Shown: positions 1 to 14,939 of the stretch, one piece after another
How positions within the stretch are numbered: position 1 is the stretch's first letter
Layout of the letters: the number at the start of each line of letters is the position of its first letter
DNA from: a phage
DNA length: 64,000 nt
Assembly (NCBI GenBank): GCA_011884725.1
Contig: GCA_011884725.1_3919.1
Reading direction: 5' to 3' (one strand)
Made by a program: the position numbers and the translations under genes
The notes under the pieces: model-generated
The model's input: the letters and a program-made list of their open reading frames with translations, nothing else
What the model was told of the DNA's origin: nothing
Database searches by the model: none

Positions 1-153
1 AAAAAACAGTATGGTAAGTGGTCTACACAGATAACTTTTAAGAAGAGGGTTTACTTCTTCGGCTACTATGACACTATTGATGAAGCAGCAGAGGTTGTAA
101 ATAGGGAACGCCAACGTTTACACAAAGAGTTTGCTAATAAAGGTGATGAATGA
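1..153 (+). CDS. C-terminal fragment of AP2-domain (homing-endonuclease-associated DNA-binding) protein; 5' end outside window
   Basis: In-frame translation ...KWSTQITFKKRVYFFGYYDTIDEAAEVVNRERQRLHKEF ends at TGA 151-153; YxGxFxTxEEA pattern typical of AP2 domains at C-termini of HNH/GIY-YIG homing endonucleases. Confidence 0.5.
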   Translation, partial: KKQYGKWSTQITFKKRVYFFGYYDTIDEAAEVVNRERQRLHKEFANKGDE

Positions 154-650
154 GAAAAATAAAAGGTTTTGGCAATTGCCCTGAATATGGACATTGGGTT
201 TCACTATGTGGTGAAGTTGACCCAGCAAAGCACTTTGGTTTTGTCTACCTAGTGTACTGCAAAAAGACTGGACAGTACTATTTGGGTAAGAAACAACTTA
301 ATAGTGTGACCAAAAGAAAAGTTGCTGGCAAGACTCGGAAGAAGGTAGTCACTAAGGAAAGTGATTGGATGACTTATGAGACTTCTTCTGAGTATATTAA
401 AAAAGATATTGAGAGCTTTGGAAAAGAATTTTTTGACTTTTACATTATTCAGACCTACTACACAAAAGGTGGCCTAGTCTATGGTGAAGCAAACCTTCAA
501 CATAAATTCGATGTAATGACAAAAAGGATTGACTCTAAGCTCAGACTCTTCTACAATGCCAATATTGCAGCAATTAAGTTTATTACTAAAGAAACTTATG
601 AAGATGCTGAAAAAAGAATCCATAAGGTAATGAAAGCAAACTGTGCTTGA
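150..650 (+). CDS. hypothetical protein, possible GIY-YIG-like endonuclease
   Basis: ORF track; N-terminal FVYLVY...GQYYLGKK resembles GIY-(10-11)-YIG spacing; ATG overlaps upstream stop (ATGA). Confidence 0.35.
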   Translation: MRKIKGFGNCPEYGHWVSLCGEVDPAKHFGFVYLVYCKKTGQYYLGKKQLNSVTKRKVAGKTRKKVVTKESDWMTYETSSEYIKKDIESFGKEFFDFYIIQTYYTKGGLVYGEANLQHKFDVMTKRIDSKLRLFYNANIAAIKFITKETYEDAEKRIHKVMKANCA

Positions 651-656
651 TAACTA

Positions 657-920
657 TTGAGAGAGAATAAAATGTTTAATAAAAGCAAAGCTGTGAGTCA
701 TGTAGCAAAAGTTGACAGTAAGATTGAAGAACTTGAGCGCATTCTTGCAAATGCTAGAGAGTCGATAATTAAAGAAGTTGAAGCTGTTGAATCTCAAATG
801 CAGCACCTAATGCTTAAACGCCAAGAGCTACGTGAACATCTGGAATATATTGAAACACGAGAGCTAAAGGTTAACAGATATTTTAAGGAGTCCAAATGTT
901 TAACTCAAGAGAATCAGTAA
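657..920 (+). CDS. hypothetical protein (coiled-coil)
   Basis: ORF track, 87 aa. Confidence 0.5.
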   Translation: MRENKMFNKSKAVSHVAKVDSKIEELERILANARESIIKEVEAVESQMQHLMLKRQELREHLEYIETRELKVNRYFKESKCLTQENQ

Positions 921-1651
921 AAAACTGGAATCTTCGTTGCGGAAAAACTCAAAAACAACCATACAGTAATGAGTATTGGGAGTCTTTGAAATCTCAATCT
1001 CTGTGTATGCTTGAAGAAGCAAAAGAGCTTGTAAAAGCAATTGAAGAGAAAGACCCCATTGAGACACTGGATGCTCAGGCAGATTTGCAATATGTTCTTG
1101 ACGGTTTGATTTATCTGTCACAACATGACCACAATGGTGCTATGGAAGCTGTTTGCCATAATAATGACCTGAAGTATACAGACGACTATGAAGAAGCTTT
1201 AAAACGTCTTGCAGATATTGAGAAGCGTACTGGTCAAGAGTGTATTATCAGAATGTCAGTAGTTGATGGTAAAGAGTGGTATGCGATTGTCCGTGCAGCC
1301 GATGGGAAGATTATGAAGCAATCAAATCTCCCTAAAGTACAGCTTGGTGAATACATTGTAGAACTTGAAAGCCAAGAACTTTTTGTGGTAGTATCTGAGA
1401 CATGCGTTATCTGCAAAGGTATTGTAGGTAGCTTAAAGGATTTGGGTGTAGATGGTTTTGTAGAAGTTAATCCAATTACCTCTAAAGCAGATAAAGATTT
1501 CTGTAAAGAGAATGGACTATGGATTGCAGATATTGTCTACTATGATGGTGAGCAGTTCCATGTAACCTCATACCCGAAACTGAATTATGATGCTAATAAC
1601 CTGAAGTGCTGGTTAAAAGGGGTTGGTTATAATGGATTCACAGAACATTAA
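896..1651 (+). CDS. hypothetical protein, possible MazG-like NTP pyrophosphohydrolase N-domain
   Basis: AGGAG 5 nt upstream of ATG 896; EEAKELVKAIEEKD...LDAQADLQYVLDGLIY resembles the MazG EExxE...D motif pattern. Confidence 0.4.
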   Translation: MFNSRESVKNWNLRCGKTQKQPYSNEYWESLKSQSLCMLEEAKELVKAIEEKDPIETLDAQADLQYVLDGLIYLSQHDHNGAMEAVCHNNDLKYTDDYEEALKRLADIEKRTGQECIIRMSVVDGKEWYAIVRAADGKIMKQSNLPKVQLGEYIVELESQELFVVVSETCVICKGIVGSLKDLGVDGFVEVNPITSKADKDFCKENGLWIADIVYYDGEQFHVTSYPKLNYDANNLKCWLKGVGYNGFTEH

Positions 1652-1955
1652 TAAAGAAGGTGTGGCTCAGAAGAGCCACTTCTCAAACTACAATATCTCT
1701 ATGACGGTGTTTATGAATGACCCGTTACTTGAGAAGTATGGTGAGACTCCAGATACACTTCTGGATAATGAACAAGTTTTAAAAGCAGTTCTGTACAAAT
1801 ACGGGATTGATATTGAGAAAGAGTATTCTTTTGAAATCTGTCAACACAGGAATACTTTTGGTAAAGTTGTAATGGCTCCACTCTTCATGGGTGTAGAAAG
1901 AACTGACTATGGTTGGTTATATCTAAAAAGAAACTTGGAGAAATACCGTGTCTAA
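1623..1955 (+). CDS. hypothetical protein
   Basis: ORF track, 110 aa. Confidence 0.45.
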   Translation: MVIMDSQNINKEGVAQKSHFSNYNISMTVFMNDPLLEKYGETPDTLLDNEQVLKAVLYKYGIDIEKEYSFEICQHRNTFGKVVMAPLFMGVERTDYGWLYLKRNLEKYRV

Positions 1956-2280
1956 AGCAAAAAAGTTATCTTATGATGACATTATCTCAGGTGCTAAATT
2001 AGGTGTTGATAGTATCGGACAAGATGTTAAGCACGGAGACACAGTTATGTACTGTGACGACCGAAGAGGCAGAAGTGCAATCTTGTTTGGAAGAGTTGTT
2101 TGCAAGATGCGAGGTAATTACGTTGTTGAAGACATGAATGTGGATGTCACAAAACAGCTTGAAATAATTATGAATAGTAATATATCATGGTTCGTCAATT
2201 GTATGCACACTTCGTCAGTCACAAAGGTAAGTGATAAGTTTTACGATATGTGGCAGAATGAGCAAATTTTCAAGATTTAA
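1948..2280 (+). CDS. hypothetical protein
   Basis: ORF track, 110 aa; followed by hairpin 2285-2304. Confidence 0.5.
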   Translation: MSKAKKLSYDDIISGAKLGVDSIGQDVKHGDTVMYCDDRRGRSAILFGRVVCKMRGNYVVEDMNVDVTKQLEIIMNSNISWFVNCMHTSSVTKVSDKFYDMWQNEQIFKI

Positions 2281-2284
2281 ACTA

Positions 2285-2304
2285 GGGAGCCTCTTCGGAG
2301 GCTC
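2285..2304 (+). terminator. hairpin GGGAGCCTCTTCGGAGGCTC (TTCG loop), no clear U-run
   Basis: Direct read between the 1948 ORF and nrdA. Confidence 0.35.
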
Positions 2305-2326
2305 TTCTCATCTGTAGGATTCAAAA

Positions 2327-4561
2327 ATGATTAAGACAATTAAAAAATCAAACGGTACAGTAGTCAGCTTTGACCCAGAAAGACTGAATAAGTGGGCATC
2401 ATGGGCAGATAAGCGTGGAATTATCTGGTCAGAAGTCACTATGGAAGCCATGAAGCGTGTCTATGAGGGTTGCACTACAAAAGAGATGCACCAAGCCATG
2501 ATTGATGTTTGTGTTGATAAGCAAACTCAAGAGTACTCAGATATGGCTGGACGGCTACTTCTGGGGATTATCTACAAAGAAGCCTTTGGAGGCTTTACTA
2601 AGGTTCCTACGCTGGTTACCTTCGTTAAAAATATGGAGAGAGCAGGGCTTTGGGAGAAGATGGACTATTCTCAGGAAGAGCTTGAATATCTGCAAGGGTA
2701 CATTGTGCACTCAAAAGATATCTCTTACGGCTATGCAGTCCTGAAACAGTTCAGAGACAAGTATGGTATCCGTGATATTAAAACGGGAAGACTTTTTGAG
2801 TCACCACAATTTATGTTTATGGGTATGGCTATGAAAGCCTTCGAGAAGCAACCAAAGCACCGCAGACTGCAAGATGTTATCAAGCTGTACACTTACTTAT
2901 CTGACCTGAAGATTAACGCTCCTACGCCTTATCTGAATGGTTTACGTGCTACTAAGTCAGGTTATGCGTCATGCTGTTTGATTAAGGCGAATGATACTGC
3001 TGAATCTCTCGGTATTGCTGCAAAGGTTGCTTATGATATGACTACAAAGCAAGCTGGTATTGGTATGCTGATGGAGACTCGGACTATTGGTGATGGTATC
3101 CGTCAAAACACTATCGAACACATGGGTAAGCTGCCTTATTACAAGCTTGTACGTTCATCTGTAGAGGCAAATAAACAGAAGAGTCGTGGTGGTTCAGCTA
3201 ACAACTTCTACACCGCTCTAGACCCGCAGATTGAAGATTTACTACGTTTGAAGCACCCTACAACGGTTCCTTCTAAACGTATTAACGAGATGGACTACTC
3301 ATTTGGTACAAATGATTATTTCTGGCAGTGTGTTCAGTATGATACAGATTGGTTGCTATTCTCTTACAAAGATGCACCAAAACTTTATGATATGTTCTAC
3401 ACCGCATCTGCTGATGAGTTCGCTATGGCAGTTGGTCACGCAGTACATTCTGGTGTTAAGCACAGACGAGTAAAGGCTCGTGAAATTGCTAAACTGTTTA
3501 TCCAGCAGCGTTACGCAACAGGTCGTGTGTATCCATTCTTCACAAATAATGCAAATACACATACACCATTTAAAGAACCTTTGAAGATGTCAAATCTTTG
3601 TATGGAAATTGTATTGCCAGTATATGGCTTTGAGAAGGAGACAAACCTTTACAGAGATGATGCTGTGAAAGAGGATGGTGAGGTAGCTCTTTGCTTCCTA
3701 GCTAGTTTGGTTGCAGGGAGAATTTCAGAAGATGAATACGCTGACGTTGCTTATTATGCTCTTGCAATGGTTGACTCCGTTATTGACCTTATGGATTATC
3801 CGTATCCGTCGATGCGTAACCATGTTCAGAAGCGTCGTTCTGTTGGTATTGGCCTTACGAATGTGGCTCATTACCTTGCGAAGAACTACGTGAACTATTC
3901 TTCAAGAGTAGGTAAGACGAAGCTTCATGAGCTTGCTGAAATGCACTCTTACTACTTACACGAAGCTTCTTTAAGACTTGCTAAAGAACGTGGTGTGCCT
4001 GAGTATATGCAGTTCACTAAGTATCCTGAAGGATGGGTTCCTCCAAAGACAGCTAACAGGAAGATTGATGAGAAGCATGATGCAAAACTAAGATATGATT
4101 GGGATGACTTAGCACAACGTATCAAAGAGAACGGTGGAATCCGTAACTCTGTATTAGAGGCTTACATGCCTAATGAGAGTTCTTCTCTGGCGACTAATAC
4201 AACTAACGGCTTGTACCCAATTCGTGACTTTATTTTAACTAAAAAGTCTGCAACTGGTAACGTACTGTTTATTGTTCCAGATTATGAAGAGTTGAAGTAT
4301 GTATATGAAATTGCTTGGGATATTGATACCTTTGACCTGATTGATTGTTATGCAATTGTTCAAAAGTTCACTGGTCAAGCTATCTCTTCAGACTTCTATG
4401 TTGACTATGCAAAGTCTAAGAAGGTATCATTGGCTCAAGCTCTGAAGTACATGATTTATGCCAACTCTGTAGGTATGAAAACCATGTACTACCTTAACAG
4501 TCGCATTGGTGTAGGTAAATCTGCACTGCAAGATGCTTATTGCGAGGGTTGTGGTGTTTAG
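2327..4561 (+). CDS. nrdA: ribonucleoside-diphosphate reductase large subunit (class Ia)
   Basis: 744 aa; N-terminal ATP-cone-like segment; active-site-like SNLCMEI; C-terminal CEGCG cysteine pair; immediately upstream of the small subunit. Confidence 0.9.
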   Translation: MIKTIKKSNGTVVSFDPERLNKWASWADKRGIIWSEVTMEAMKRVYEGCTTKEMHQAMIDVCVDKQTQEYSDMAGRLLLGIIYKEAFGGFTKVPTLVTFVKNMERAGLWEKMDYSQEELEYLQGYIVHSKDISYGYAVLKQFRDKYGIRDIKTGRLFESPQFMFMGMAMKAFEKQPKHRRLQDVIKLYTYLSDLKINAPTPYLNGLRATKSGYASCCLIKANDTAESLGIAAKVAYDMTTKQAGIGMLMETRTIGDGIRQNTIEHMGKLPYYKLVRSSVEANKQKSRGGSANNFYTALDPQIEDLLRLKHPTTVPSKRINEMDYSFGTNDYFWQCVQYDTDWLLFSYKDAPKLYDMFYTASADEFAMAVGHAVHSGVKHRRVKAREIAKLFIQQRYATGRVYPFFTNNANTHTPFKEPLKMSNLCMEIVLPVYGFEKETNLYRDDAVKEDGEVALCFLASLVAGRISEDEYADVAYYALAMVDSVIDLMDYPYPSMRNHVQKRRSVGIGLTNVAHYLAKNYVNYSSRVGKTKLHELAEMHSYYLHEASLRLAKERGVPEYMQFTKYPEGWVPPKTANRKIDEKHDAKLRYDWDDLAQRIKENGGIRNSVLEAYMPNESSSLATNTTNGLYPIRDFILTKKSATGNVLFIVPDYEELKYVYEIAWDIDTFDLIDCYAIVQKFTGQAISSDFYVDYAKSKKVSLAQALKYMIYANSVGMKTMYYLNSRIGVGKSALQDAYCEGCGV

Positions 4562-4616
4562 TTTTAACAACTATGAGGGTCGTAAAAGACCCTCTAAAAA
4601 TAACTTTGGAGAGACC

Positions 4617-4874
4617 ATGAAAGATTTAATAGAAAAACATGAGCGACCAATATACTTGCTCTACAAACCCCGCAAAGCATTATACTATGTGAGCAGCACA
4701 GGTATCATGATAAAGCAGAATGATGACTTATGGGTCACTGGAGCCTCTTACATCTCTACAGCAGATGGTAAAATCTACGCAAGACCTTATGAGATGTTTA
4801 ACAAAGAAAATTGGGAAGTTTTAGACAGAAAACAAGCCTTAGAAATGATAAAGAAAGGAGAAATCACGCTATGA
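4617..4874 (+). CDS. hypothetical protein
   Basis: ATG 4617 preceded by GGAGAG; the track ORF from 4533 overlaps the nrdA end, so the start was trimmed. Confidence 0.45.
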   Translation: MKDLIEKHERPIYLLYKPRKALYYVSSTGIMIKQNDDLWVTGASYISTADGKIYARPYEMFNKENWEVLDRKQALEMIKKGEITL

Positions 4875-5944
4875 TTAACCAGCACCCAATATTTTTAGGT
4901 GGTGAGAGAAAAACTTTTGACTCACTCAATAAGCACTACCCAAAAATCTTTGAACTTTATAAACAACAAAAAGCACAAGACTGGTCAGAAGATGAGTTCC
5001 CTTTTGAACAATCACGTCTTGATTTTGAGAGTGTCCCAGCATCAATGTCAGGTGTAATGCTTGAGATTCTTAAGTGGCAATGGGAAGCAGATACTCAAGT
5101 TGCTAAGAGCTTGGCATTTGCCTTTGCACCCTTTATCTCTGATGACATCTACGCAACTGCAATTATGAAGCAGTCTGAGATTGAGAACCTTCATGCTTTG
5201 ACTTACTCAGAGATTGTAAGGCAATGTATTAAAAACCCTGAAACAATCTTAGATGAGATTAACCAGAATGTTGCTGTACAAGACCGATTAAAAACTGTGA
5301 ATCGTGTTCTTGAAGAATTACTGGATGAAGGTATAAACTATCGCCTGAGTTATGTCCGTGATTCACTTCTGGACAAAGACCCTCTACACTTCCATAAAGT
5401 GATTCTGAAAGGTCTATTTGCAGTGACTGCACTGGAAGGTATATCTTTTATGGCATCCTTTGCATGTACTTTTGCACTTGATGCTCAAGATAAATTTCAG
5501 GGTATTGCTCAAGCTGTCCAGAAAATTATGCTTGATGAAATCCTTCACACTAAAATTGATATTGAAGTTTTAAAAGAAACTTTAAGAGATGATGAGTGGC
5601 AAAAAGCTTTCCAACAAATTCTTCCAGAGATTAAAGTAATCTTAGATGAAGTAGTTGAAAGTGAAGAAAAATGGTCGTATTATATCTTCTCCGAAGGACG
5701 TGCTGTAGTTGGTTTAAATACAAAGCTTCTTCATGAGTGGGTTTACTATAATGCTGCCCCACTGTATGATATGTTTGGCATTCCCAGAGATTTTGTAGCT
5801 CCTAAAGAACCACCTTTGAAGTATATGATTAAGAAGATGGAAATTGATAAAGAGCAGAATGCTAATCAGGAGCAACAGAACGGTGCGTATTTATTGAATA
5901 CTGTTGTAGATGATTTGAATAGTGGATTTTTAGAGGTTCCTTAA
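4871..5944 (+). CDS. nrdB: ribonucleoside-diphosphate reductase small subunit (class Ia)
   Basis: Start taken at ATG 4871 (AAAGGAG upstream; track start 4811 is a TTG); ferritin-like diiron-type protein (EILHTK) following nrdA. Confidence 0.85.
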   Translation: MINQHPIFLGGERKTFDSLNKHYPKIFELYKQQKAQDWSEDEFPFEQSRLDFESVPASMSGVMLEILKWQWEADTQVAKSLAFAFAPFISDDIYATAIMKQSEIENLHALTYSEIVRQCIKNPETILDEINQNVAVQDRLKTVNRVLEELLDEGINYRLSYVRDSLLDKDPLHFHKVILKGLFAVTALEGISFMASFACTFALDAQDKFQGIAQAVQKIMLDEILHTKIDIEVLKETLRDDEWQKAFQQILPEIKVILDEVVESEEKWSYYIFSEGRAVVGLNTKLLHEWVYYNAAPLYDMFGIPRDFVAPKEPPLKYMIKKMEIDKEQNANQEQQNGAYLLNTVVDDLNSGFLEVP

Positions 5945-6186
5945 TGACTTATGTAATTTACTCCAAAACTGGATGCCCTCAGTGTGAGACTGCAAAGAAT
6001 TTTGCGAAAGCTCGTGGTATTGACCATGTTGTGAGAATGTTAGGGCAGGATTATGAACTGTCAGACCTGATGGATATTGCACAGATGCCAGTTCGTCAGA
6101 TGCCATTCATCATGAAAACTGATGGACAAAACCTAAAGCCTGTTGGGACGCTACAGAATTTTATGGCAGAGGTGAATAATGCTTAA
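5944..6186 (+). CDS. glutaredoxin-like protein (NrdH/Grx-type redoxin)
   Basis: 80 aa with CPQC active-site motif near the N-terminus, adjacent to nrdB. Confidence 0.75.
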   Translation: MTYVIYSKTGCPQCETAKNFAKARGIDHVVRMLGQDYELSDLMDIAQMPVRQMPFIMKTDGQNLKPVGTLQNFMAEVNNA

Positions 6187-6385
6187 ACGCATTTGGGAAG
6201 GTTTGGTTGTTGATGCACCAGCTATTGTGATTGGTATGCTGATTGTTAACCTATTTACTGATTTTGAACAAGGTTCGTTGTTTGGGGCCATGTTACTATG
6301 GGTTATCTTTGAAATATTAGAGATACAGTTAGGCATCACTGAAAAACTAAGAAAACTCGTTTCGAAGTTTTCTAAAAAGATTTAA
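6179..6385 (+). CDS. hypothetical small membrane protein
   Basis: ORF track; hydrophobic; followed by terminator 6393-6415. Confidence 0.45.
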   Translation: MLKRIWEGLVVDAPAIVIGMLIVNLFTDFEQGSLFGAMLLWVIFEILEIQLGITEKLRKLVSKFSKKI

Positions 6386-6392
6386 AATGAAA

Positions 6393-6415
6393 GGGTCTCT
6401 TCGGAGACCTTTTTA
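6393..6415 (+). terminator. rho-independent terminator GGGTCTC-TTCG-GAGACC + TTTTT
   Basis: Direct read. Confidence 0.65.
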
Positions 6416-6433
6416 GCATGTAAAGGGGCAATA

Positions 6434-8578
6434 ATGAACAAAGTACAGATTATTAAAAAGAATGGCTCACTTGAAGAACCTGATATCAAAAAAGTTTTAG
6501 CGGCAGTAACAAAGTCAGCTAACAGGGTTGGGTATAGAGAACTTCCACCAGATGTTACCCAAGCTCTTGAGTCAGCATTTATGAGGATTCTGGTAAAGTC
6601 CACTAAGCAGAATAATTTACTAATCTCGGTAAATGATATTCACAGTATTGTTGAGGGTGCTTTGGCAGAAGTTAATCACGAGATTTATGAGTCTTACTCA
6701 ACATATAGAAATTACCGTAAAGAGGTTGCTCAAAATTGGGATGAGCTTTACCAAAAGACCAGAGACACACTCTTCTTAGGTGACCGTGAAAATGCTAACT
6801 TTGACAGCAGTTTAATTTCTACAAAGGGTTCAATTATTCGTGGTTATCTGACTAAAGAAATCTTTAAACAATACTATTTAACACCAGAGGAACTTGAAGC
6901 CATTGAAAAAGGGTTTATCTACATCCATGACTTAAGAGACTTAATTTTTGGTGGTATTAACTGCTGCTTGTTTGACATTGGTAAAGTACTGAAAGGTGGC
7001 TTTGAAATGTCTGGCATCGAATACTGTGAACCGAAGTCTGTACTGTCAGCCTTACAAGTTATCGGTGATGTAGTTCTTTCAGCAACTGCACAGCAATTTG
7101 GTGGCTTTACTTTAGCAGAGATTGATAAGGTACTTGTACCATATGCTAAGAAGTCTCTACGCTATCATGCTGAGAAAGCATCATCTTATGGTATTCCTAA
7201 AGAGCATTACCACAATTATGTAATGGAGCAGTTACAAATTGAACTGACTCAGGGTTTTCAGTCACTTGAGATGAAACTAAATACCGTACCTTGTAGCCGT
7301 GGTGATTTTGCATTCACAACTTTAACATTTGGTTTACTTGACTCAGATATGTCTAATGAGGATAATCGACTCCAATACATGATTGCAAGTACTCTCCTAG
7401 ATGTTCGTATGAATGGACAAGGCAAGAGCAAAAAACCTGTTGTATTCCCTAAACTGGTTTATATTTATGACCAGAAGAGACATGATGAAAATATCTGTCA
7501 AGGTCACCTGTACAGTAAAGCTATTGAGTGTTGCTCTAAAGCGATGTACCCAGATTTCTTAAGTGTGTCTGGTCATGGTGCTGTAGCAGAGGCTTTTGAG
7601 CGTTCTGGTAAGGTAATTTCACCGATGGGTTGCAGAGCCTTCTTATCTCCATATTTTAATGAGGATGGGGAAGAGTTTTACGTTGGTCGTGCTAACATTG
7701 GTGCTGTATCTTTGAACTTGCCAATGATTTACCAGTACTCTAAAGAGAATGGTTTAGATTTCTGGAAAGAGCTTGATAAGTACCTAGAGATGATTCGCAA
7801 CTTCCACAAGAAACGCTACGAAATGATTGCTAATATGCCAGCAAGTTCTAACCCTCTTGCGTTCACACAAGGTGGTCTGTACAAAGGAACTAAGAAACCT
7901 ACTGACAAGGTTGGTTGGGATATTGTGAAGTCCTTCACAGCTTCTTTTGGTGTTACTGCGCTTGATGAGTTGTCTGTTCTTGCTGAAGGTAAACGACTTC
8001 ATGAAGTTGGAAGCTATAGTTTTGCATATGATGTTCTGGCATACATTAACATGAAAACCGAAGAGTTTAAAAATGAAGATGGCTTCTTATATGCCGTCTA
8101 TGGTACTCCAGCAGAATCACTATGTGGGACTCAGCTAAAACAGTTCAGAGATATGTTTGGGGTTATCAAAGGTGTTTCCGATAAGGAATACTTTACAAAC
8201 AGTTTCCATATGAATGTTGCAGCAGACATCTCACCATTTGAGAAGCAGGACTTAGAAGAGCCATTCTTCCATATCTGTAGAGGTGGTAGAATCCAGTATG
8301 TAAGAGTAGCTAACCCAGAAAACTTATCAGCACTTAAGAGTTGTATTACAAGAGGGATGTTGAAAGGTTTCTATCAGGGACTTAACTTTGACTTAGCAAT
8401 CTGTGAGCATTGTGGTAACAGACCAAAGGCTGATGTTGAAGAATGTGAGGTTTGTCATTCACATGATATCTCTGTGATTAACAGGGTGTGCGGGTACTTG
8501 TCATTCACAAAAATTAAAGGTCAGTCTCGAATGAATGACGCTAAGATGGCAGAAATTAAGGATAGGGTTTCTATGTAG
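6434..8578 (+). CDS. nrdD: anaerobic ribonucleoside-triphosphate reductase (class III)
   Basis: 714 aa; C-terminal glycyl-radical-like RVCGYL and CxxC...CxxC zinc ribbon (CEHCG...CEVCHS). Confidence 0.9.
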   Translation: MNKVQIIKKNGSLEEPDIKKVLAAVTKSANRVGYRELPPDVTQALESAFMRILVKSTKQNNLLISVNDIHSIVEGALAEVNHEIYESYSTYRNYRKEVAQNWDELYQKTRDTLFLGDRENANFDSSLISTKGSIIRGYLTKEIFKQYYLTPEELEAIEKGFIYIHDLRDLIFGGINCCLFDIGKVLKGGFEMSGIEYCEPKSVLSALQVIGDVVLSATAQQFGGFTLAEIDKVLVPYAKKSLRYHAEKASSYGIPKEHYHNYVMEQLQIELTQGFQSLEMKLNTVPCSRGDFAFTTLTFGLLDSDMSNEDNRLQYMIASTLLDVRMNGQGKSKKPVVFPKLVYIYDQKRHDENICQGHLYSKAIECCSKAMYPDFLSVSGHGAVAEAFERSGKVISPMGCRAFLSPYFNEDGEEFYVGRANIGAVSLNLPMIYQYSKENGLDFWKELDKYLEMIRNFHKKRYEMIANMPASSNPLAFTQGGLYKGTKKPTDKVGWDIVKSFTASFGVTALDELSVLAEGKRLHEVGSYSFAYDVLAYINMKTEEFKNEDGFLYAVYGTPAESLCGTQLKQFRDMFGVIKGVSDKEYFTNSFHMNVAADISPFEKQDLEEPFFHICRGGRIQYVRVANPENLSALKSCITRGMLKGFYQGLNFDLAICEHCGNRPKADVEECEVCHSHDISVINRVCGYLSFTKIKGQSRMNDAKMAEIKDRVSM

Positions 8579-8585
8579 CATACAA

Positions 8586-9143
8586 ATGAATTACGAACTA
8601 ATATATAATGCAATTATTAAGAAGGCACATTCTGAAAGGGGTGTGCCTCTTACATACTACAAATGTCAAGGTAAGGGTTATGAAAGACACCATATCATAC
8701 CAGTATGTCTAGGTGGCGATAAAATTAGTGGAGATAATATTGCTTTACTTACACCTAGAGAGCATTATATAGCTCATAAATTACTGGTTAAGATGTATCC
8801 AAACAATCATAAGTTATGGTTTGCATGGAACAGGTTAGCTCATGATGGCCTAGATAGGAAAATATCATCCAGAGACTATGAAAAGGTAAGGGCTTTGAAC
8901 TCGAAAGCTCTATCTATTGTGAATAAAGGTAGGGTTTTCACTGAAGAACATCGAAGACGATTAGGAGAATCTCAAATAGGCAATACAAAATCAAAAGGTT
9001 GTAAAAGGTCTATAGAAACAAGGAAGAAGATGTCAGAAGCCGGAAAAAAGCCAAAGAAAAAGAAAACTTGCCCTCATTGTGGTATGACTGGTGGTGCTGG
9101 TAACATGACTCGATATCATTTTGACAATTGTAAGAAAAAATAA
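8586..9143 (+). CDS. HNH homing endonuclease
   Basis: ATG 8586 just after the nrdD stop; HNH motif YERHHIIPVCLGGDKISGDNIALLTPREHYIAHK; basic C-terminus with CPHCG zinc-finger-like pair. Confidence 0.75.
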   Translation: MNYELIYNAIIKKAHSERGVPLTYYKCQGKGYERHHIIPVCLGGDKISGDNIALLTPREHYIAHKLLVKMYPNNHKLWFAWNRLAHDGLDRKISSRDYEKVRALNSKALSIVNKGRVFTEEHRRRLGESQIGNTKSKGCKRSIETRKKMSEAGKKPKKKKTCPHCGMTGGAGNMTRYHFDNCKKK

Positions 9144-9307
9144 CCTTATGTAAAACTTGACAAGGTGGTGTGGGTCTTGATAGGCTTACATCACCTTTTT
9201 TATTGGATGTTAGATATGGCAGAGAGTATTATTGGGTTGTTCATAGGTTCTGTCTTACTAGGGTTCTTTTTAGGACTCTCTTATTGTGAATTAAGAGGCA
9301 AGTTAAA

Positions 9308-9508
9308 ATGTTTAAAATATCAAAAGCGTTGATATACATTCTCCACATTCTAATCTTCTTCTTTGGGGTTAGTGTTATGGTATGGGGTTTTTCAGACCCA
9401 CAATGGAGTTTCGCATATCAGGGTCAGATGGATTTATGGTCATGCTTCAAACCATTTTTAGGGTTAGTCATAGCATTCAGTGCATTGCCAACTAAGGTGA
9501 AATTATGA
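9308..9508 (+). CDS. hypothetical small membrane protein
   Basis: ORF track, 66 aa, hydrophobic. Confidence 0.4.
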   Translation: MFKISKALIYILHILIFFFGVSVMVWGFSDPQWSFAYQGQMDLWSCFKPFLGLVIAFSALPTKVKL

Positions 9509-9900
9509 TTAAGTTGAACAAAAAACAGTTAGAGTGGATTAAAGATTATGCCTCAGAGTGTGGCTCTTGCGAAAAGAATCACGTAAGATATTCAACATTC
9601 CATACGACCTTCACATTGTACATCAGCGACAACGTTCTAAGTGATTCCGTAGAAGATGGTGTAGCGTTACCTAATGAATTGCTTGACAAATTAGCTGTAG
9701 TCTCTGGAACTTGGTCTGAAGAAGACGGTCATGAATTATCTAACGATGTTGTCTTCTACACTCTTGAAAATATTATGAATCCAGAGTACATTATGCTAAT
9801 GACTTGTGCACAAGATTGTGTGCCATTACAAAACTTCATTAAAGAACACTGCGAAGAATTTATTACTAAACAGGTTCCTTGTCAGGTGGTGTTTGAATGA
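9505..9900 (+). CDS. hypothetical protein
   Basis: ORF track; start overlaps upstream stop. Confidence 0.5.
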   Translation: MIKLNKKQLEWIKDYASECGSCEKNHVRYSTFHTTFTLYISDNVLSDSVEDGVALPNELLDKLAVVSGTWSEEDGHELSNDVVFYTLENIMNPEYIMLMTCAQDCVPLQNFIKEHCEEFITKQVPCQVVFE

Positions 9901-10196
9901 GTAAAACAATTCGAAGAAAAGGTTTAAAGAACGTTCATGGACTCTATGAGTGGAGAAATGAGGTACGTAACAGAGAAAATGCTTCAGATGTCTACTTCCA
10001 TTCTGATATGATGTCCAGAAAAGGTGGCTCTTACGACTTCACAAGCCAGCCTTGTAGAGAGATTAAGAAGGCCACTAAACGTCTTACAAGAACACAAATA
10101 AGGCAGCTTTCTAAGACATCCTTCTTAGATGAAGATTTTGATATTGATAGCAAGTCTCCAAAGAAAGCCGCTAAGAACACTTATATGTATTGGTGA
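9897..10196 (+). CDS. hypothetical protein
   Basis: ORF track; start overlaps upstream stop. Confidence 0.5.
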   Translation: MSKTIRRKGLKNVHGLYEWRNEVRNRENASDVYFHSDMMSRKGGSYDFTSQPCREIKKATKRLTRTQIRQLSKTSFLDEDFDIDSKSPKKAAKNTYMYW

Positions 10197-10205
10197 GGTA
10201 ACTAG

Positions 10206-10691
10206 ATGAATTACATGGAGATTCGACCATTTGACACAGCTAATGGTGAAGGGGTTCGTGTAAGCCTCTTCGTAGCTGGTTGTAAGCATCACTGTGAAGG
10301 TTGCTTTAATAAGGAATCTTGGAAGTTTAATGCTGGTAAAGAGTTCACTTATGCAAACCTTTATGGCATCATTAAGTTAATGGATGATAATGCCATCAGT
10401 GGGCTGTCAATACTTGGTGGAGAACCTCTGGATGATAGAAACATTCAAGAGGTTACCAACATATGCAAACGTATTAAAACCGTTTACCCAGAAAAATCTA
10501 TCTGGCTCTGGACAGGTTTTCAGTTACATGAAAAAATTCACCTTGATGTGATGAAATATGTTGACGTGGTGATTGATGGTAAGTATGATTCATCTAAACC
10601 AACAGTTAAACCATATCGTGGTTCTGATAACCAAAACCTCTGGAGAAAAGAGTATGGGTGGCAAGGTGATTGTCAGTGGAGAGCAGAGTGA
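10206..10691 (+). CDS. nrdG: anaerobic ribonucleotide reductase activating protein (radical SAM)
   Basis: 161 aa with CKHHCEGCFNKESW (CxxxCxxC radical-SAM cluster motif); downstream of nrdD. Confidence 0.85.
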   Translation: MNYMEIRPFDTANGEGVRVSLFVAGCKHHCEGCFNKESWKFNAGKEFTYANLYGIIKLMDDNAISGLSILGGEPLDDRNIQEVTNICKRIKTVYPEKSIWLWTGFQLHEKIHLDVMKYVDVVIDGKYDSSKPTVKPYRGSDNQNLWRKEYGWQGDCQWRAE

Positions 10692-10791
10692 TTATTCTGG
10701 CAAATGGACTAAGGTATAACTCCAATTGGTATCACTGAAGAAGAACTTCATAAGTTCTGTATTAAACTTTAATGAGAGAGAGAGACTAAAA

Positions 10792-11058
10792 ATGGGAATT
10801 TTAGGTAATATGAAAGCTGGCTTCTTGAAGGCACTGGCAAAAGCAGCAGCAATTGTTTCTATGACTGGAAAGCAGGTCGGTGTAGATGCTTCAGCGGTTG
10901 CACAGGTTCTTACAAGCCAAATTGAACAGCAGCCTTACATCTATGTAGGCCGTGGCAAAGGTGGTAAGAAACAAGCCCACCGTCCGTCTGGTGCAGCAGC
11001 TATTAAACGAGCAGCTAAGAAAGCTCGTAACCGTAAACGTAATAAGAAGGCTAAATAA
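10792..11058 (+). CDS. hypothetical highly basic protein
   Basis: ATG 10792 in track ORF frame; Lys/Arg-rich C-terminus (KKARNRKRNKKAK). Confidence 0.45.
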   Translation: MGILGNMKAGFLKALAKAAAIVSMTGKQVGVDASAVAQVLTSQIEQQPYIYVGRGKGGKKQAHRPSGAAAIKRAAKKARNRKRNKKAK

Positions 11059-11060
11059 TC

Positions 11061-11381
11061 ATGAGCAAAGTTTATAACACTCGTAAATTACAGATTTTCT
11101 TACTGTGCCAGTTTATGGCTAGAGAGCATAACTCCTACTATTGTGGTACAGGATTCATTAGTGATAATGATGGCTCATATCTCCCATTCAAAGAGGCTGT
11201 AAAACTCTTCAATGAAGAGAAAAGCTCTGAGAAAGATATTGAAAAAGTTAAATTAACCTACAGTAAGAAAGATAAGAAGATTATCTGCCTAGATAACTTT
11301 GTGAAAGTTACCAAAGAAACTAAAGAGTTAATGGAAGAAAGTGAAATTCCATTCACAAGAATCTTGAAAGTAGCTCAGTAA
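11061..11381 (+). CDS. hypothetical protein
   Basis: ORF track; followed by terminator 11395-11420. Confidence 0.5.
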   Translation: MSKVYNTRKLQIFLLCQFMAREHNSYYCGTGFISDNDGSYLPFKEAVKLFNEEKSSEKDIEKVKLTYSKKDKKIICLDNFVKVTKETKELMEESEIPFTRILKVAQ

Positions 11382-11394
11382 GCAGATACTATAA

Positions 11395-11420
11395 GGGAAC
11401 TGTAAAGGTTCCCTTTTTAT
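11395..11420 (+). terminator. rho-independent terminator GGGAAC-TGTAAAG-GTTCCC + TTTTT
   Basis: Direct read. Confidence 0.65.
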
Positions 11421-11432
11421 TTTGGAGATAAT

Positions 11433-11948
11433 ATGTATCTGTCAAATCTGAAACGTTCTGCTGCAATGTCAGTGTTAAGACTCAGTTTTGAGGAACGTCA
11501 AGAGTTCATTGACTCCCACCAATACGACCCTTCCAACTCCAATCACATGATTCTCTGGAATCGTGAGAGTACTCGTGAAAGAGCATTATTTCGATATTAT
11601 CCACACTACACCATAGACAACCTGTATGAATGTTTTGTTGTGAAGAACACCATTACAGTACTCAATAAACTTTGCAGATACACAGGCAGTCAATCCTTCA
11701 CATTAGGCCACCACAAACCTGTTACAAAAGGTGGTGAACATCACTGTGCAAACTGGTTTATTCAGACTAAAGCTGATAACCAGAAGCAAGGAGATAGCCT
11801 TTTAAGTGCCCCTAAGATGACCTATGAAGAGCAAGAGAAATATATCAAAAATAATATGCCAGATGTGCTTGACAACAACTATACAGATTTGGCAATATCT
11901 CTCCTGTTGAAGTTCGAGACAGTTTATAGGGCAACTTATAATGGCTAA
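11433..11948 (+). CDS. hypothetical protein with HNH-like nuclease motif
   Basis: GGAG upstream of ATG; LGHHKPVTKGGEHHCANWFIQTKADNQKQG resembles an HNH core. Confidence 0.45.
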   Translation: MYLSNLKRSAAMSVLRLSFEERQEFIDSHQYDPSNSNHMILWNRESTRERALFRYYPHYTIDNLYECFVVKNTITVLNKLCRYTGSQSFTLGHHKPVTKGGEHHCANWFIQTKADNQKQGDSLLSAPKMTYEEQEKYIKNNMPDVLDNNYTDLAISLLLKFETVYRATYNG

Positions 11949-12219
11949 AGAAAAGTGGGAGATTTTACCATTAGTCAGTGAAGGAGGTAATGGTTGTGAA
12001 ATGTACATGATACGTGGTCATGTTCCAGAGCCAATTGCACTTGAGATGGTAAACAACTTTACAGATGGTTCTTACAAAGACTTAGGCGAACCAACTGTCA
12101 AGCAACAATGGGTTAAACCTGTACCAGACAGCACAGGTAACTGTAGTGTACTTTATCACGTTGTAGACCCTGCAAAATGCAAATCTGCAATGGCAGTAAC
12201 AAACGTAACTTTTGATTGA
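11941..12219 (+). CDS. hypothetical protein
   Basis: ORF track, 92 aa. Confidence 0.45.
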   Translation: MAKEKWEILPLVSEGGNGCEMYMIRGHVPEPIALEMVNNFTDGSYKDLGEPTVKQQWVKPVPDSTGNCSVLYHVVDPAKCKSAMAVTNVTFD

Positions 12220-12230
12220 GAGAGAAAACT

Positions 12231-13112
12231 ATGAAAACATCTATCCGTGTTACAGTTCATTCACCAACTAAAGGGACTCATGAAGAAGAGTTTAACATCG
12301 TCCAATTCCCTTCTGGTGAGATTGGTGGACACTTTTCGCCAGAGTTTGTTGATTTTACTGCTTATGCAGCATCATCCATCAGCAATGTGATTATGATTGT
12401 AAAAGGTTATGACAAGGACACATTGTTTGCTGTGGCACTTGCTAAAGAAGCAATTGATGATTTAATTCCTCATGATTATGCTTTAAAGACTGTCATCTTT
12501 TACTACTTACCAAATGCACGATATGACCGTCACATGTTTAAAGGTGACGCAGCAGCTTTAAAGGTTTTTGCTAAACAGATTAATGCAATGGGATTTGGCG
12601 CAGTCTGTGCAGTTGACCCTCACAGCTATGTACCAGATAACCTGTTTAACTGCTTCCAGAGTATTCCTCAAAAGGAAATTGCAGTCCACTATGCAAATGA
12701 CCCACTGGTTGATTACTTAGTAGCCCCAGATGCAGGTGCTGCTAAGAAGGTTGCAGAGACCGCTAAAGAGGTGGATAAACCATATATCACAATGTCTAAG
12801 GTGCGTAACCTTAAGACTGGTGAAATTACTGGTATGCGAATCCTTGATGATGTTGATTTGACAGATAAAACCGTCATGATTCTGGATGATATCTGTGATG
12901 GTGGTCGAACCTTCATAGAAGCAGCTAAACATCTTCGTGAAGCAGGTGCAAAACGTGTGGAACTCTATGTAACACACGGTATCTTCTCTAAAGATGTTGA
13001 AAACCTTCTTGACAATGGCATTGACCACATCTACACTACAAACTCTTTAGGGGAAGCTAAAGACCGTGGCTTAACACATTATGGTCAAGTTACTGTAGCA
13101 AACCTTGATTGA
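12231..13112 (+). CDS. ribose-phosphate pyrophosphokinase family protein (Prs-like; candidate ADP-ribose pyrophosphokinase Adps of NARP1)
   Basis: ATG 12231 (track start 12216 is a TTG); PRPP-binding motif MILDDICDGGRTF; adjacent to NAMPT-family gene. Confidence 0.75.
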   Translation: MKTSIRVTVHSPTKGTHEEEFNIVQFPSGEIGGHFSPEFVDFTAYAASSISNVIMIVKGYDKDTLFAVALAKEAIDDLIPHDYALKTVIFYYLPNARYDRHMFKGDAAALKVFAKQINAMGFGAVCAVDPHSYVPDNLFNCFQSIPQKEIAVHYANDPLVDYLVAPDAGAAKKVAETAKEVDKPYITMSKVRNLKTGEITGMRILDDVDLTDKTVMILDDICDGGRTFIEAAKHLREAGAKRVELYVTHGIFSKDVENLLDNGIDHIYTTNSLGEAKDRGLTHYGQVTVANLD

Positions 13113-13121
13113 AACTTTATA

Positions 13122-13142
13122 GGGGCTTAAAAGCCCCATTTT
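13122..13142 (+). terminator. terminator-like hairpin GGGGCT-TAAA-AGCCCC + ATTTT
   Basis: Direct read between Prs-like and NAMPT-like genes. Confidence 0.5.
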
Positions 13143-13157
13143 GAGAGAGATTAAAAG

Positions 13158-14939
13158 ATGACTAAATCACTTTATGCAGTACCAGCAGGTTTAAACGCAG
13201 ATGCTTACAAATCTGGTCATGTTTACCAGTACCCTAGTGCAACAGAGTACTTGATGTTCAACCTGACACCACGTAGTGACAAATGGTTTAACAGCCCCTT
13301 AGCAATTGATGGTGTAGTAGCTTTTGGTATTCAACGTTTCGTTAAAGATTACTTGATAGACCACTGGAACGCCACTTTCTTTGAACGTGATAAAAAAGAA
13401 GCCATTGATGAAATCTTAGAAGTCATGAATGGTGTTCTGGGTAAAGATGCTATCGGTCGAGAGCATTGGGAAGCACTTCACGACTTAGGCTATCTACCAG
13501 TTGAAGTATACGCTGTAGAAGAAGGTACAGTTGTTCCTATGCGTGTACCAATGATTGTCTTCCAGAACACTGTTTCAGGTTTCCATTGGGTAGCGGGATA
13601 TCTGGAAGATGCTTTCTCTGCTGAGATTTGGAAGGCTTGTACCATTGCAACTATTGCATTGCATTATAAACGCATCTGTAAGAAGTGGGCTGACCTTACT
13701 TGCGACAATGACTTACATTTACCTTATCAGTGCCATGACTTTGCTATGCGTGGTATGTCCGGCTTTACTGATGACGCATTTAACGCTGTAGGCCACTTAA
13801 CCAGCTTTAAAGGGACTGATAGCTTCCCTGCTGTATATACAGCTAAACGCATCTACGGACAGTCTTACCCAGTCTCTGATATTGGTGGTTCTGTACCAGC
13901 CACTGAACACTCTGTAATGTGTGCAAACATTGCTTGGGAAGGTGGTAATGAGTTGGTTGAAGAAGAAAGACGCTTTAAAGGTGAGTTGCAAACCTTCCGT
14001 CGCTTCTTAACAGAAACTTATCCAACTGGTATTGCAAGTGTTGTTTCAGACACTTATAACTTCTGGAGAACTGTGTCAGAAATCTTACCAGCACTCCGTA
14101 AAGAAATTATGGAACGTGATGGCAAACTGGTAATTCGTCCTGACTCTGGAGACCCTGTACACATTGTCACAGGTTATAAAGCAATCCACTTAGAGTGTGC
14201 TAAAAAGGCTTATTATGAGCACCTAAGCAATCTGGAAGCCAGTGACACAATGCTGAATGCTGTTCTGAACATGAAGCTTGAAAACATCAGTTATGGTATT
14301 GCTGGATGGCTACTGTCAGAAGGCTACGAAATGGTTGTTGACAGAGAAGACTTTGAAGTTGCTGATACAGTGATGTTGAAGAACGCTTATATGGTTGGTT
14401 CTGCAAACGTTGTAACACGCCCTGTAGCAGAGATTGATGGAGCTATTAAGACCTTGTATAACATCTTTGGAGGAACTATTAACTCTAAAGGTTTTAAGGT
14501 ACTGGATGAGCACATTGGCCTTATCTATGGCGACTCTATCACGTTGGAACGTGCAAACGAAATCCTGAAGCGTCTGTATGAAATGGGGTTTGCAAGCTCT
14601 AACGTGGTGTTTGGTGTGGGCTCTTACACTTACCAGTACATGACTCGTGACACCTTTGCATTTGCTGTCAAAGCAACTCTTGCAAGCATTGGTGGCAAAG
14701 AGATTATGCTTGCAAAAGACCCTAAAACAGATAGTGGTGTTAAGAAATCTGCCTTTGGTGGTGTAGCACCTATGTGGGATGGTGAGAATTTGAAAGCTGT
14801 AGATGGCTATGGATTCCAGAGCTTTGCAGATGCACTTGAACATCCAGCTTGTGCTTTACGTTTAGTCTTTAGCGACTCTGAGCAGTACGGTTACACAACT
14901 CTTGGTGATATTCGAAATAATATTGACAAGCAGCTTTAA
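13158..14939 (+). CDS. nicotinamide phosphoribosyltransferase family protein (NAMPT/NadV-like; candidate Namat of NARP1)
   Basis: 593 aa; segments match NAMPT signatures recalled from human NAMPT (DAYKSGHVYQYP, CHDFAMRGMSG, SFKGTDSF, VPATEHSV, VVSDTYNFW, IRPDSGDP). Confidence 0.8.
   Translation: MTKSLYAVPAGLNADAYKSGHVYQYPSATEYLMFNLTPRSDKWFNSPLAIDGVVAFGIQRFVKDYLIDHWNATFFERDKKEAIDEILEVMNGVLGKDAIGREHWEALHDLGYLPVEVYAVEEGTVVPMRVPMIVFQNTVSGFHWVAGYLEDAFSAEIWKACTIATIALHYKRICKKWADLTCDNDLHLPYQCHDFAMRGMSGFTDDAFNAVGHLTSFKGTDSFPAVYTAKRIYGQSYPVSDIGGSVPATEHSVMCANIAWEGGNELVEEERRFKGELQTFRRFLTETYPTGIASVVSDTYNFWRTVSEILPALRKEIMERDGKLVIRPDSGDPVHIVTGYKAIHLECAKKAYYEHLSNLEASDTMLNAVLNMKLENISYGIAGWLLSEGYEMVVDREDFEVADTVMLKNAYMVGSANVVTRPVAEIDGAIKTLYNIFGGTINSKGFKVLDEHIGLIYGDSITLERANEILKRLYEMGFASSNVVFGVGSYTYQYMTRDTFAFAVKATLASIGGKEIMLAKDPKTDSGVKKSAFGGVAPMWDGENLKAVDGYGFQSFADALEHPACALRLVFSDSEQYGYTTLGDIRNNIDKQL

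Follow-up and report, generated by a model that had tools for sequence, protein, structure and literature searches.

Are the nuclease-like genes found in a phage nucleotide-metabolism cluster all mobile homing endonuclease genes that mark sites of lateral transfer, or do some of them belong to the core gene set of the phage? The question is raised by the 64-kilobase (kb) window analyzed here, a stretch of 64,000 nucleotides (nt) from phage contig GCA_011884725.1_3919.1 (GenBank assembly GCA_011884725.1), in which four such genes lie in and around the genes for ribonucleotide reductase (RNR). It centers on one of them, an HNH endonuclease gene at 8586–9143 that directly follows nrdD, the gene for the large subunit of the anaerobic RNR. 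Our analyses suggest that the region is very probably a nucleotide-metabolism cluster in which two of these genes belong to free-standing HNH homing-endonuclease cassettes and the other two are core genes, nuclease-like but fixed. The flagged open reading frames (ORFs) are all present where the initial annotation had placed them (Table 1). The "T4-type" setting that it assumed had to be given up: bases 1–12500 matched 261 phage records at 80–99% identity, nearly all of them Felixounavirus or Felix-O1-like phages of enterobacterial hosts (Escherichia, Salmonella, Shigella, and Citrobacter), the top annotated match being Escherichia phage vB_EcoM-VpaE1 (VpaE1), a member of the Ounavirinae. By these matches the window is from a Felixounavirus, a Felix-O1-like myovirus, and a T4-type phage is excluded.

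The gene at 8586–9143 opens with an ATG 8 nt past the nrdD stop codon and is an intact ORF of 185 amino acids (aa), whose product is organized as an N-terminal HNH region followed by NUMOD3 and a C-terminal, zinc-finger-like CxxC...HxxxC motif. The catalytic motif, YERHHIIPVCLGGDKISGDNIALLTPREHYIAHK (HH...N...H...H), aligns residue for residue with the catalytic HNH residues of colicin E9 and pyocin AP41; NUMOD3 scores 23.4 bits, above the Pfam cut-off of 20.4; and the protein matches phrog_655, "homing endonuclease," at 3.5e-57. The C-terminal motif, CPHCG...HFDNC, is conserved among the orthologues, and both the catalytic and the zinc-finger residues are invariant across orthologues from three lineages. 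The protein is 100% identical to the "MobE-like HNH homing endonuclease" of phage Barry. A tblastn search of the T4 genome with it found four matching places, the best of them mobD (39.4% over 125 aa, E 4e-14), while the MobE-like protein of phage Lw1 is 35% identical over its full length. Mob-type relatives occur in 1029 phage records; T4-like genomes often have more than one, and a position beside nrdA is common. The ORF, the motif, NUMOD3, and phrog_655 thus all agree with the initial call of an HNH endonuclease gene that begins 8 nt past the stop codon of nrdD, and by these sequence criteria the gene is a free-standing HNH homing endonuclease gene of the T4 Mob family, the product of which would have endonuclease activity.

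Junction alignments with relatives that have an empty site (HY02, DE17, fjerdesal, SeKF_63, and Felix O1) delimit the insertion precisely. Homology with these genomes breaks off at 8577 and picks up at 9147, which defines an insert of 575 nt with a 6-nt repeat, TATGTA, on both sides; the empty site reads TCTATGTAAAACTTGACA and contains a single copy of the repeat. The same length separates the two forms of the region as a whole: from nrdD to nrdG, the gene for the activating enzyme of the anaerobic RNR, the distance is 1627 nt in the window, and HY02 and DE17 have ~1052 nt. The comparison of spacing that the initial annotation had proposed thus gave a difference of exactly 575 nt; its picture of an HNH gene splitting nrdD from nrdG was overstated, as the ~1052 nt between them in the empty phages already hold backbone ORFs. 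Between the HNH gene and nrdG there are four small ORFs, not the three first counted: two encode putative membrane proteins, one is 131 aa long, and one of 99 aa matches DUF5499 below threshold. All four occur also in genomes without the HNH gene and so lie outside the mobile cassette, which means that nrdD and nrdG were apart before the insertion took place.

The position of the insert also bears on how the gene would be expressed. A predicted intrinsic terminator of the nrdD transcription unit (fold −24.9 kcal/mol, z −4.3), an equivalent of which is annotated in Meda and Michonne, lies directly 3′ of the nrdD stop codon in phages without the insert; in the window the cassette is wedged between that stop codon and the terminator, and the HNH gene would therefore be co-transcribed with nrdD. 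A scan of the + strand upstream of the gene detected no promoter-like site of its own, in a scan whose site total was not above that of shuffled sequence. There is no recognizable Shine–Dalgarno sequence, and a regulatory hairpin over the start codon was sought and none was found (z +0.87). As judged from these predicted elements, the gene is a promoter-less cassette within the nrdD transcription unit, probably translated only weakly, through re-initiation 8 nt past the nrdD stop. The same promoter-less arrangement, with translational coupling, has been described for the mob genes of T4 (PMC2988022).

Among the ~262 records that contain an nrdD 3′ end, ~52 carry the full-length cassette, an occupancy of ~20%. 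Forty-nine of these carriers are Felixounavirus, with 94–100% nt identity, and an evenly spread sample obtained with the empty site as query gave 11 carriers among ~52 Felix-O1-like rows; Felix O1 itself has an empty site. The cassette extends beyond this genus: Suspvirus SUSP1 and Hafnia phage SarahDanielle have the same gene 8 nt after nrdD, at 72–75% nt and 76–82% protein identity, and the site is empty in SUSP2 and in the Mooglevirus Michonne. Near relatives thus either carry the gene at 8586–9143 or have a site that is precisely empty, and the insertion polymorphism that had been proposed as a test of this gene was found, together with a foreign-looking flank.

That flank is the 3′ end of nrdD, which in the window belongs to a form that we call allele A. 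When 8494–8575 is compared with the genomes that have the other form, allele B, 24 of 78 positions are mismatched (30.8%), as against 3.3–4.9% upstream and 1–5% downstream (Fisher p 1e-11 to 1e-14 for the excess), and the divergence is restricted to the ~85 nt that abut the insert. Identity to the window at the nrdD 3′ end is bimodal across the population, with 93 records at or above 95%, one at 90–95%, and 168 below 90%. Allele A was present in 46/46 carriers checked (40 from the listing and six read directly), and 0/4 of the allele-B genomes read carry the HNH gene. The divergent tract begins directly after the RVCGY codons of nrdD, which we take to be the glycyl-radical motif of class III reductases. 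Moreover, carriers in all three lineages encode YLSF...EIKDR in the tract, while the empty allele-B genomes, SUSP2, and Michonne encode YLGW...EI(R/Q)DR. The ~30% divergence of the tract is comparable to that of nrdD between genera (77–79% identity), which fits a short foreign piece of nrdD brought in with the cassette. The allele A tract would then be a co-conversion or immunity tract, and its changes would protect carriers from their own enzyme. In a non-exhaustive literature search we found no published description of this flank-allele association or of the occupancy figures.

We therefore propose nrdD as the target gene of the endonuclease. In a mixed infection, the product of 8586–9143 would nick or cleave the nrdD 3′ end of a co-infecting, cassette-less relative in the sequence directly downstream of RVCGY, and its recognition or cleavage site in allele B would probably lie near TGGATGGACTAAGAT, near ATTCGTGACAG, or near both. 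Recombinational repair off the carrier genome would then copy the cassette along with ~85 nt of the donor nrdD 3′ end, and the altered codons of the tract (SF for GW, and K for R or Q) would shield carriers from self-cleavage. In T4, mob endonucleases nick their targets and spread with co-conversion, and homing endonucleases typically aim at functionally critical codons (PMC2988022).

The window opens inside a second gene of the same kind. The translation of bases 1–150 in frame 1, with its stop codon at 151–153, is 100% identical to residues 122–171 of the VpaE1 HNH endonuclease, and PHROG HNH families match this translation at 1.5e-13. The full-length VpaE1 protein contains HNH_3 (1.2e-11) and a sub-threshold AP2 match (5.6e-4; 20.6 bits versus a Pfam cut-off of 33.3), and the sister allele of fjerdesal reaches 33.9 bits against that cut-off, matches with which the AP2-type C-terminus recognized at the window start agrees. 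The gene is inserted after a 5′–3′ exonuclease gene, and the TGA with which it ends overlaps the ATG of the GIY-YIG gene (ATGA). As an insertion of ~490 nt, it is present in ~18 of ~52 sampled records, including some Mooglevirus, in at least three diverged alleles with a common conserved N-terminus, and empty sites are seen as well; this presence and absence agrees with the lateral mobility that had been suggested for it. The exonuclease gene itself is affected, its final codons being rewritten by the insertion. Where the HNH–AP2 gene is present, its start overlaps the exonuclease end by 23–47 nt (L001 2638–2684; L005 2493–2530; L020 3444–3490), and the exonuclease C-terminus changes from ...FKKYNWEPCMNED to ...FDKYGWTPNVNSTNS. 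Since this C-terminus is both altered and overlapped, the insertion replaced the 3′ end of its neighbor. On this sequence evidence the HNH–AP2 gene is, like that at 8586–9143, a mobile cassette, the second in the cluster. The HNH genes known from relatives have no further copy elsewhere in the window.

The remaining two nuclease-like genes are of a different character. The protein encoded at 150–650 has a true GIY-YIG domain, as the initial annotation had supposed (Pfam SegE_GIY-YIG, 8.9e-27, 94 bits against a cut-off of 25), and Pfam detected nothing outside residues 22–139 of its 166 aa, and no DNA-binding domain. For this reason it is not a currently mobile homing endonuclease gene: it differs from the GIY-YIG homing endonucleases I-TevI and SegE in being fixed and in lacking a linker, a zinc finger, and a DNA-binding domain. 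All Ounavirinae records sampled have a single copy of it, always in the same place, and hundreds of cyanomyoviruses have the gene as well. Searches of PDB sequences with the protein, alone or as a profile, gave chance matches only. In many GenBank relatives and in PHROG 447 the gene is called "NAD synthetase"; because GIY-YIG is the only domain found, this label looks misannotated and propagated from the Felix O1 record.

The ORF at 11433–11948 contains an invariant motif, GH[HY]x5-6GGxHHxxNWxIQx4N, located on a predicted β-β-α element, and has a weak PHROG HNH match (1.1e-4). The HNH-like description rests on this motif; no Pfam HNH model matches the protein, and hhalign of its family against the Mob HNH family gave a nonsignificant probability of 0.2%. 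A fold search was uninformative, a PDB sequence search gave only chance matches (a match to protein A repeats among the PDB searches being a repeat artefact), and the homologue families of the two proteins are shallow (10 and 20 hits), so that both AlphaFold models are of moderate confidence. Single copies of the gene are present in 429 records, 400 with ≥80% coverage, from Ounavirinae and from phi92-like and rV5-like phages. By its motif and predicted structure the protein is possibly an HNN-type nuclease, and its gene is not a mobile one. Like the GIY-YIG gene, it has the same position in all relatives sampled, the pattern that the initial annotation itself had named as speaking against mobility.

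Several points weigh against the proposal that the HNH gene homes into nrdD. Allele A and the gene are not strictly linked, because ~41 allele-A records, such as JLBYU32, garuso, and Meda, have a precisely empty site. The genomes compared are related and thus non-independent samples, which inflates the allele-association statistics, and no right-hand conversion tract is visible beside the insert. On the protein, Pfam HNH models and the Col-Pyo_DNase match are sub-threshold, NUMOD3 alone being above its cut-off, and the position of the cut is deduced from sequence, which by itself cannot fix a cleavage site. The empty allele-A genomes are also compatible with repeat-mediated deletion, as would be expected if 8586–9143 were a decaying or domesticated, non-homing passenger that is inherited vertically in one sublineage and deleted through TATGTA, with alleles A and B an unrelated old polymorphism; the close kinship of the carriers (94–100% nt identity) and the lack of an own promoter or Shine–Dalgarno sequence accord with such a history. 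A decaying gene would, however, hardly be expected to have kept a full-length ORF with catalytic and zinc-finger residues invariant across three lineages that are only 72–75% identical in DNA, and the 76–82% protein identity implies purifying selection. Nor does an old polymorphism account readily for divergence limited to the ~85 nt next to the insert, or for the SF and K codon changes, which are found together with the gene in the Hafnia phage too and, when SUSP1 is compared with SUSP2, in Suspvirus. Because these changes are shared with carriers outside the genus, vertical descent within Felixounavirus is hard to reconcile with the data, and we regard a passenger gene as improbable. The empty allele-A records may be resistant products of partial conversion or losses via the TATGTA repeat, or allele A may be a lineage polymorphism older than the cassette.

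The broader claim of the initial annotation, that all four nuclease-like genes are homing endonuclease genes marking lateral transfer, has some points in its favor: the GIY-YIG domain is real, some GenBank records name the gene "GIY-YIG homing endonuclease," a distant GIY-YIG homologue, P0010 (270 aa), has a C-terminal extension, and the ORF at 11433–11948 has an HNH-like motif on a predicted β-β-α element. Yet both genes are fixed in all relatives sampled, and this claim seems very improbable. We would sooner entertain, as a tentative idea still short of our favored one, that the GIY-YIG protein and the product of 11433–11948 may be former homing endonucleases kept for the phage's own use, for example in degrading host DNA to feed nucleotide salvage and RNR, and that, separately, the Mob-type endonuclease may recognize the codons right after the NrdD glycyl-radical motif. 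T4 endonuclease II is a GIY-YIG enzyme that degrades host DNA.

Although the phage is not T4-like, the analogy drawn to T4 homing genes near nrd is sound, since T4 has the free-standing HNH gene mobC in its nrdG/nrdD interval and mobE between nrdA and nrdB (PMC2988022). Like mobC, the gene at 8586–9143 is a free-standing Mob-family HNH gene between anaerobic RNR genes, in the orientation of its neighbors and with no intergenic promoter of its own; in some T4 relatives SegH replaces mobC in this interval. The two differ in that the host genome is of the Straboviridae in one case and the Ounavirinae in the other, that the closest T4 match is mobD, and that the gene described here abuts nrdD and lies four ORFs before nrdG. 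There is also a likeness to MobE, which in T4 and Aeh1 is encoded between nrdA and nrdB and nicks nrdB. Both proteins combine an HNH domain with a C-terminal DNA-binding region, and both genes begin directly after an RNR gene ends, an arrangement that suggests translation at a low level and coupled to that gene. A neighboring RNR gene as target and spread with flanking co-conversion (PMC2988022) would be a further likeness, proposed only in the case of 8586–9143. In contrast, identity to the MobE-like protein of Lw1 is ~35%, and the neighbor is nrdD instead of nrdA or nrdB. The proteins annotated as "MobE-like HNH homing endonuclease" in VpaE1 (ORF117), Barry, Mushroom, and BPS17W1 are products of the same gene at the same site, with 95–100% protein identity. 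The nrd-linked homing endonuclease genes are thus real, ordinary, and already known and annotated, and the analysis of occupancy and flank is a modest addition.

The cluster in which these genes lie runs, on the + strand, from the HNH tail and the GIY-YIG gene through a MazG-like gene, nrdA, nrdB, a glutaredoxin gene, and nrdD to the HNH gene, the four small ORFs, and nrdG, and then through several small ORFs, including 11433–11948, to prs (ribose-phosphate pyrophosphokinase) and nadV (nicotinamide phosphoribosyltransferase); the enzyme assignments are backed by Pfam.

Table 1. Features of the cluster and of the nrdD-linked insertion, in window coordinates
Feature	Position	Strand	Basis
3′ end (last 50 codons and stop) of free-standing endonuclease gene, probably of HNH_3+AP2 type	1–153	+	VpaE1 identity; PHROG
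Stand-alone GIY-YIG nuclease-domain protein, 166 aa; fixed core gene	150–650	+	Pfam SegE_GIY-YIG
nrdA	2327–4561	+	
nrdB	ends 5944	+	
nrdD, anaerobic RNR large subunit, uninterrupted; stop TAG at 8576–8578	6434–8578	+	Pfam NRDD (6.9e-115) and ATP-cone; collinear with Felix O1 nrdD
Endonuclease-linked nrdD 3′ end (allele A)	8494–8578	+	24/78 mismatches; bimodal population; shared codons
Left TATGTA copy	8572–8577	+	Alignment to relatives with an empty site
Mob-type free-standing HNH homing endonuclease gene, 185 aa	8586–9143	+	Motifs; NUMOD3; phrog_655; relatives
Right TATGTA copy	9147–9152	+	Single copy in empty sites
Predicted intrinsic terminator of the nrdD transcription unit	9162–9205 or 9162–9197	+	16-pair stem and T-run (scan)
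The four backbone ORFs that precede nrdG	9165–9332, 9308–9508, 9505–9900, 9897–10196	+	Also in genomes without the HNH gene
nrdG, anaerobic RNR activating enzyme (radical SAM)	10206–10691	+	Pfam Fer4_12 (1.8e-43) and Radical_SAM
Conserved 171-aa core protein, possible HNN-type nuclease	11433–11948	+	Invariant motif

Other sites in the cluster vary among relatives. The prs/nadV junction (13112–13158) is empty in the window. VpaE1 and Felix O1 have a gene for a 163-aa HNH_3+AP2 endonuclease there, and in SUSP1 an HNH endonuclease gene is annotated directly after prs. By these comparisons the junction is a third site of endonuclease polymorphism. In BPS17W1 and Meda, nrdD is interrupted by a 741-nt insertion (L003 10476–11216; L011 2451–3191) at the SPMGCRAF codons, at window position ~7631, which we take to be the active-site cysteine loop. 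This insertion encodes an HNH_3 endonuclease and has a sub-threshold match to a group I intron (38 bits versus a gathering threshold of 50, E 6e-8). The corresponding site in the window is uninterrupted, and an Rfam scan of 1–13200 found no RNA family and therefore no intron there. The nrdD of Mushroom has been reported to be disrupted by a homing endonuclease (PMC4392139), and Felix O1 has been reported to contain six HNH genes (PMC3185647).

The small ORFs, too, form an indel mosaic among the relatives, at 9220–9321, 9912–10175, 10690–10938, 11090–11291, and 11946–12187. In garuso and Meda, 9220–9321 is replaced by an alternative membrane ORF of 111–128 aa; the 128-aa ORF after nrdD in these phages was considered as a degraded endonuclease and proved to be this unrelated membrane-protein cassette. 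The 99-aa ORF at 9897–10196 is missing from Felix O1 and BPS17W1, 10690–10938 is replaced in VpaE1 and Felix O1, 11090–11291 is missing in HY02, and 11946–12187 is missing in BPS17W1. A 106-aa ORF at 11061–11381 (Pfam DUF7390, 2e-15) goes under the name "HNH homing endonuclease" or "HNH endonuclease" in several relatives; neither an HNH motif nor a match to a Pfam HNH model was found in it.

Collectively, these analyses separate two mobile cassettes from two look-alike core genes and correct the assumption of a T4-type phage. They also advise caution with phylogenies of therapeutic Felix-O1-like phages, as the region is mosaic. The ~20% occupancy, the sharply bounded 85-nt tract, and the recurrence of the cassette in three Ounavirinae lineages amount to a natural experiment on Mob-type HNH homing outside T4, and the population data predict where the cleavage site should be sought. 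If the endonuclease does recognize the codons after the NrdD glycyl-radical motif, these would represent a defined new target site that is conserved across three lineages of the Ounavirinae.

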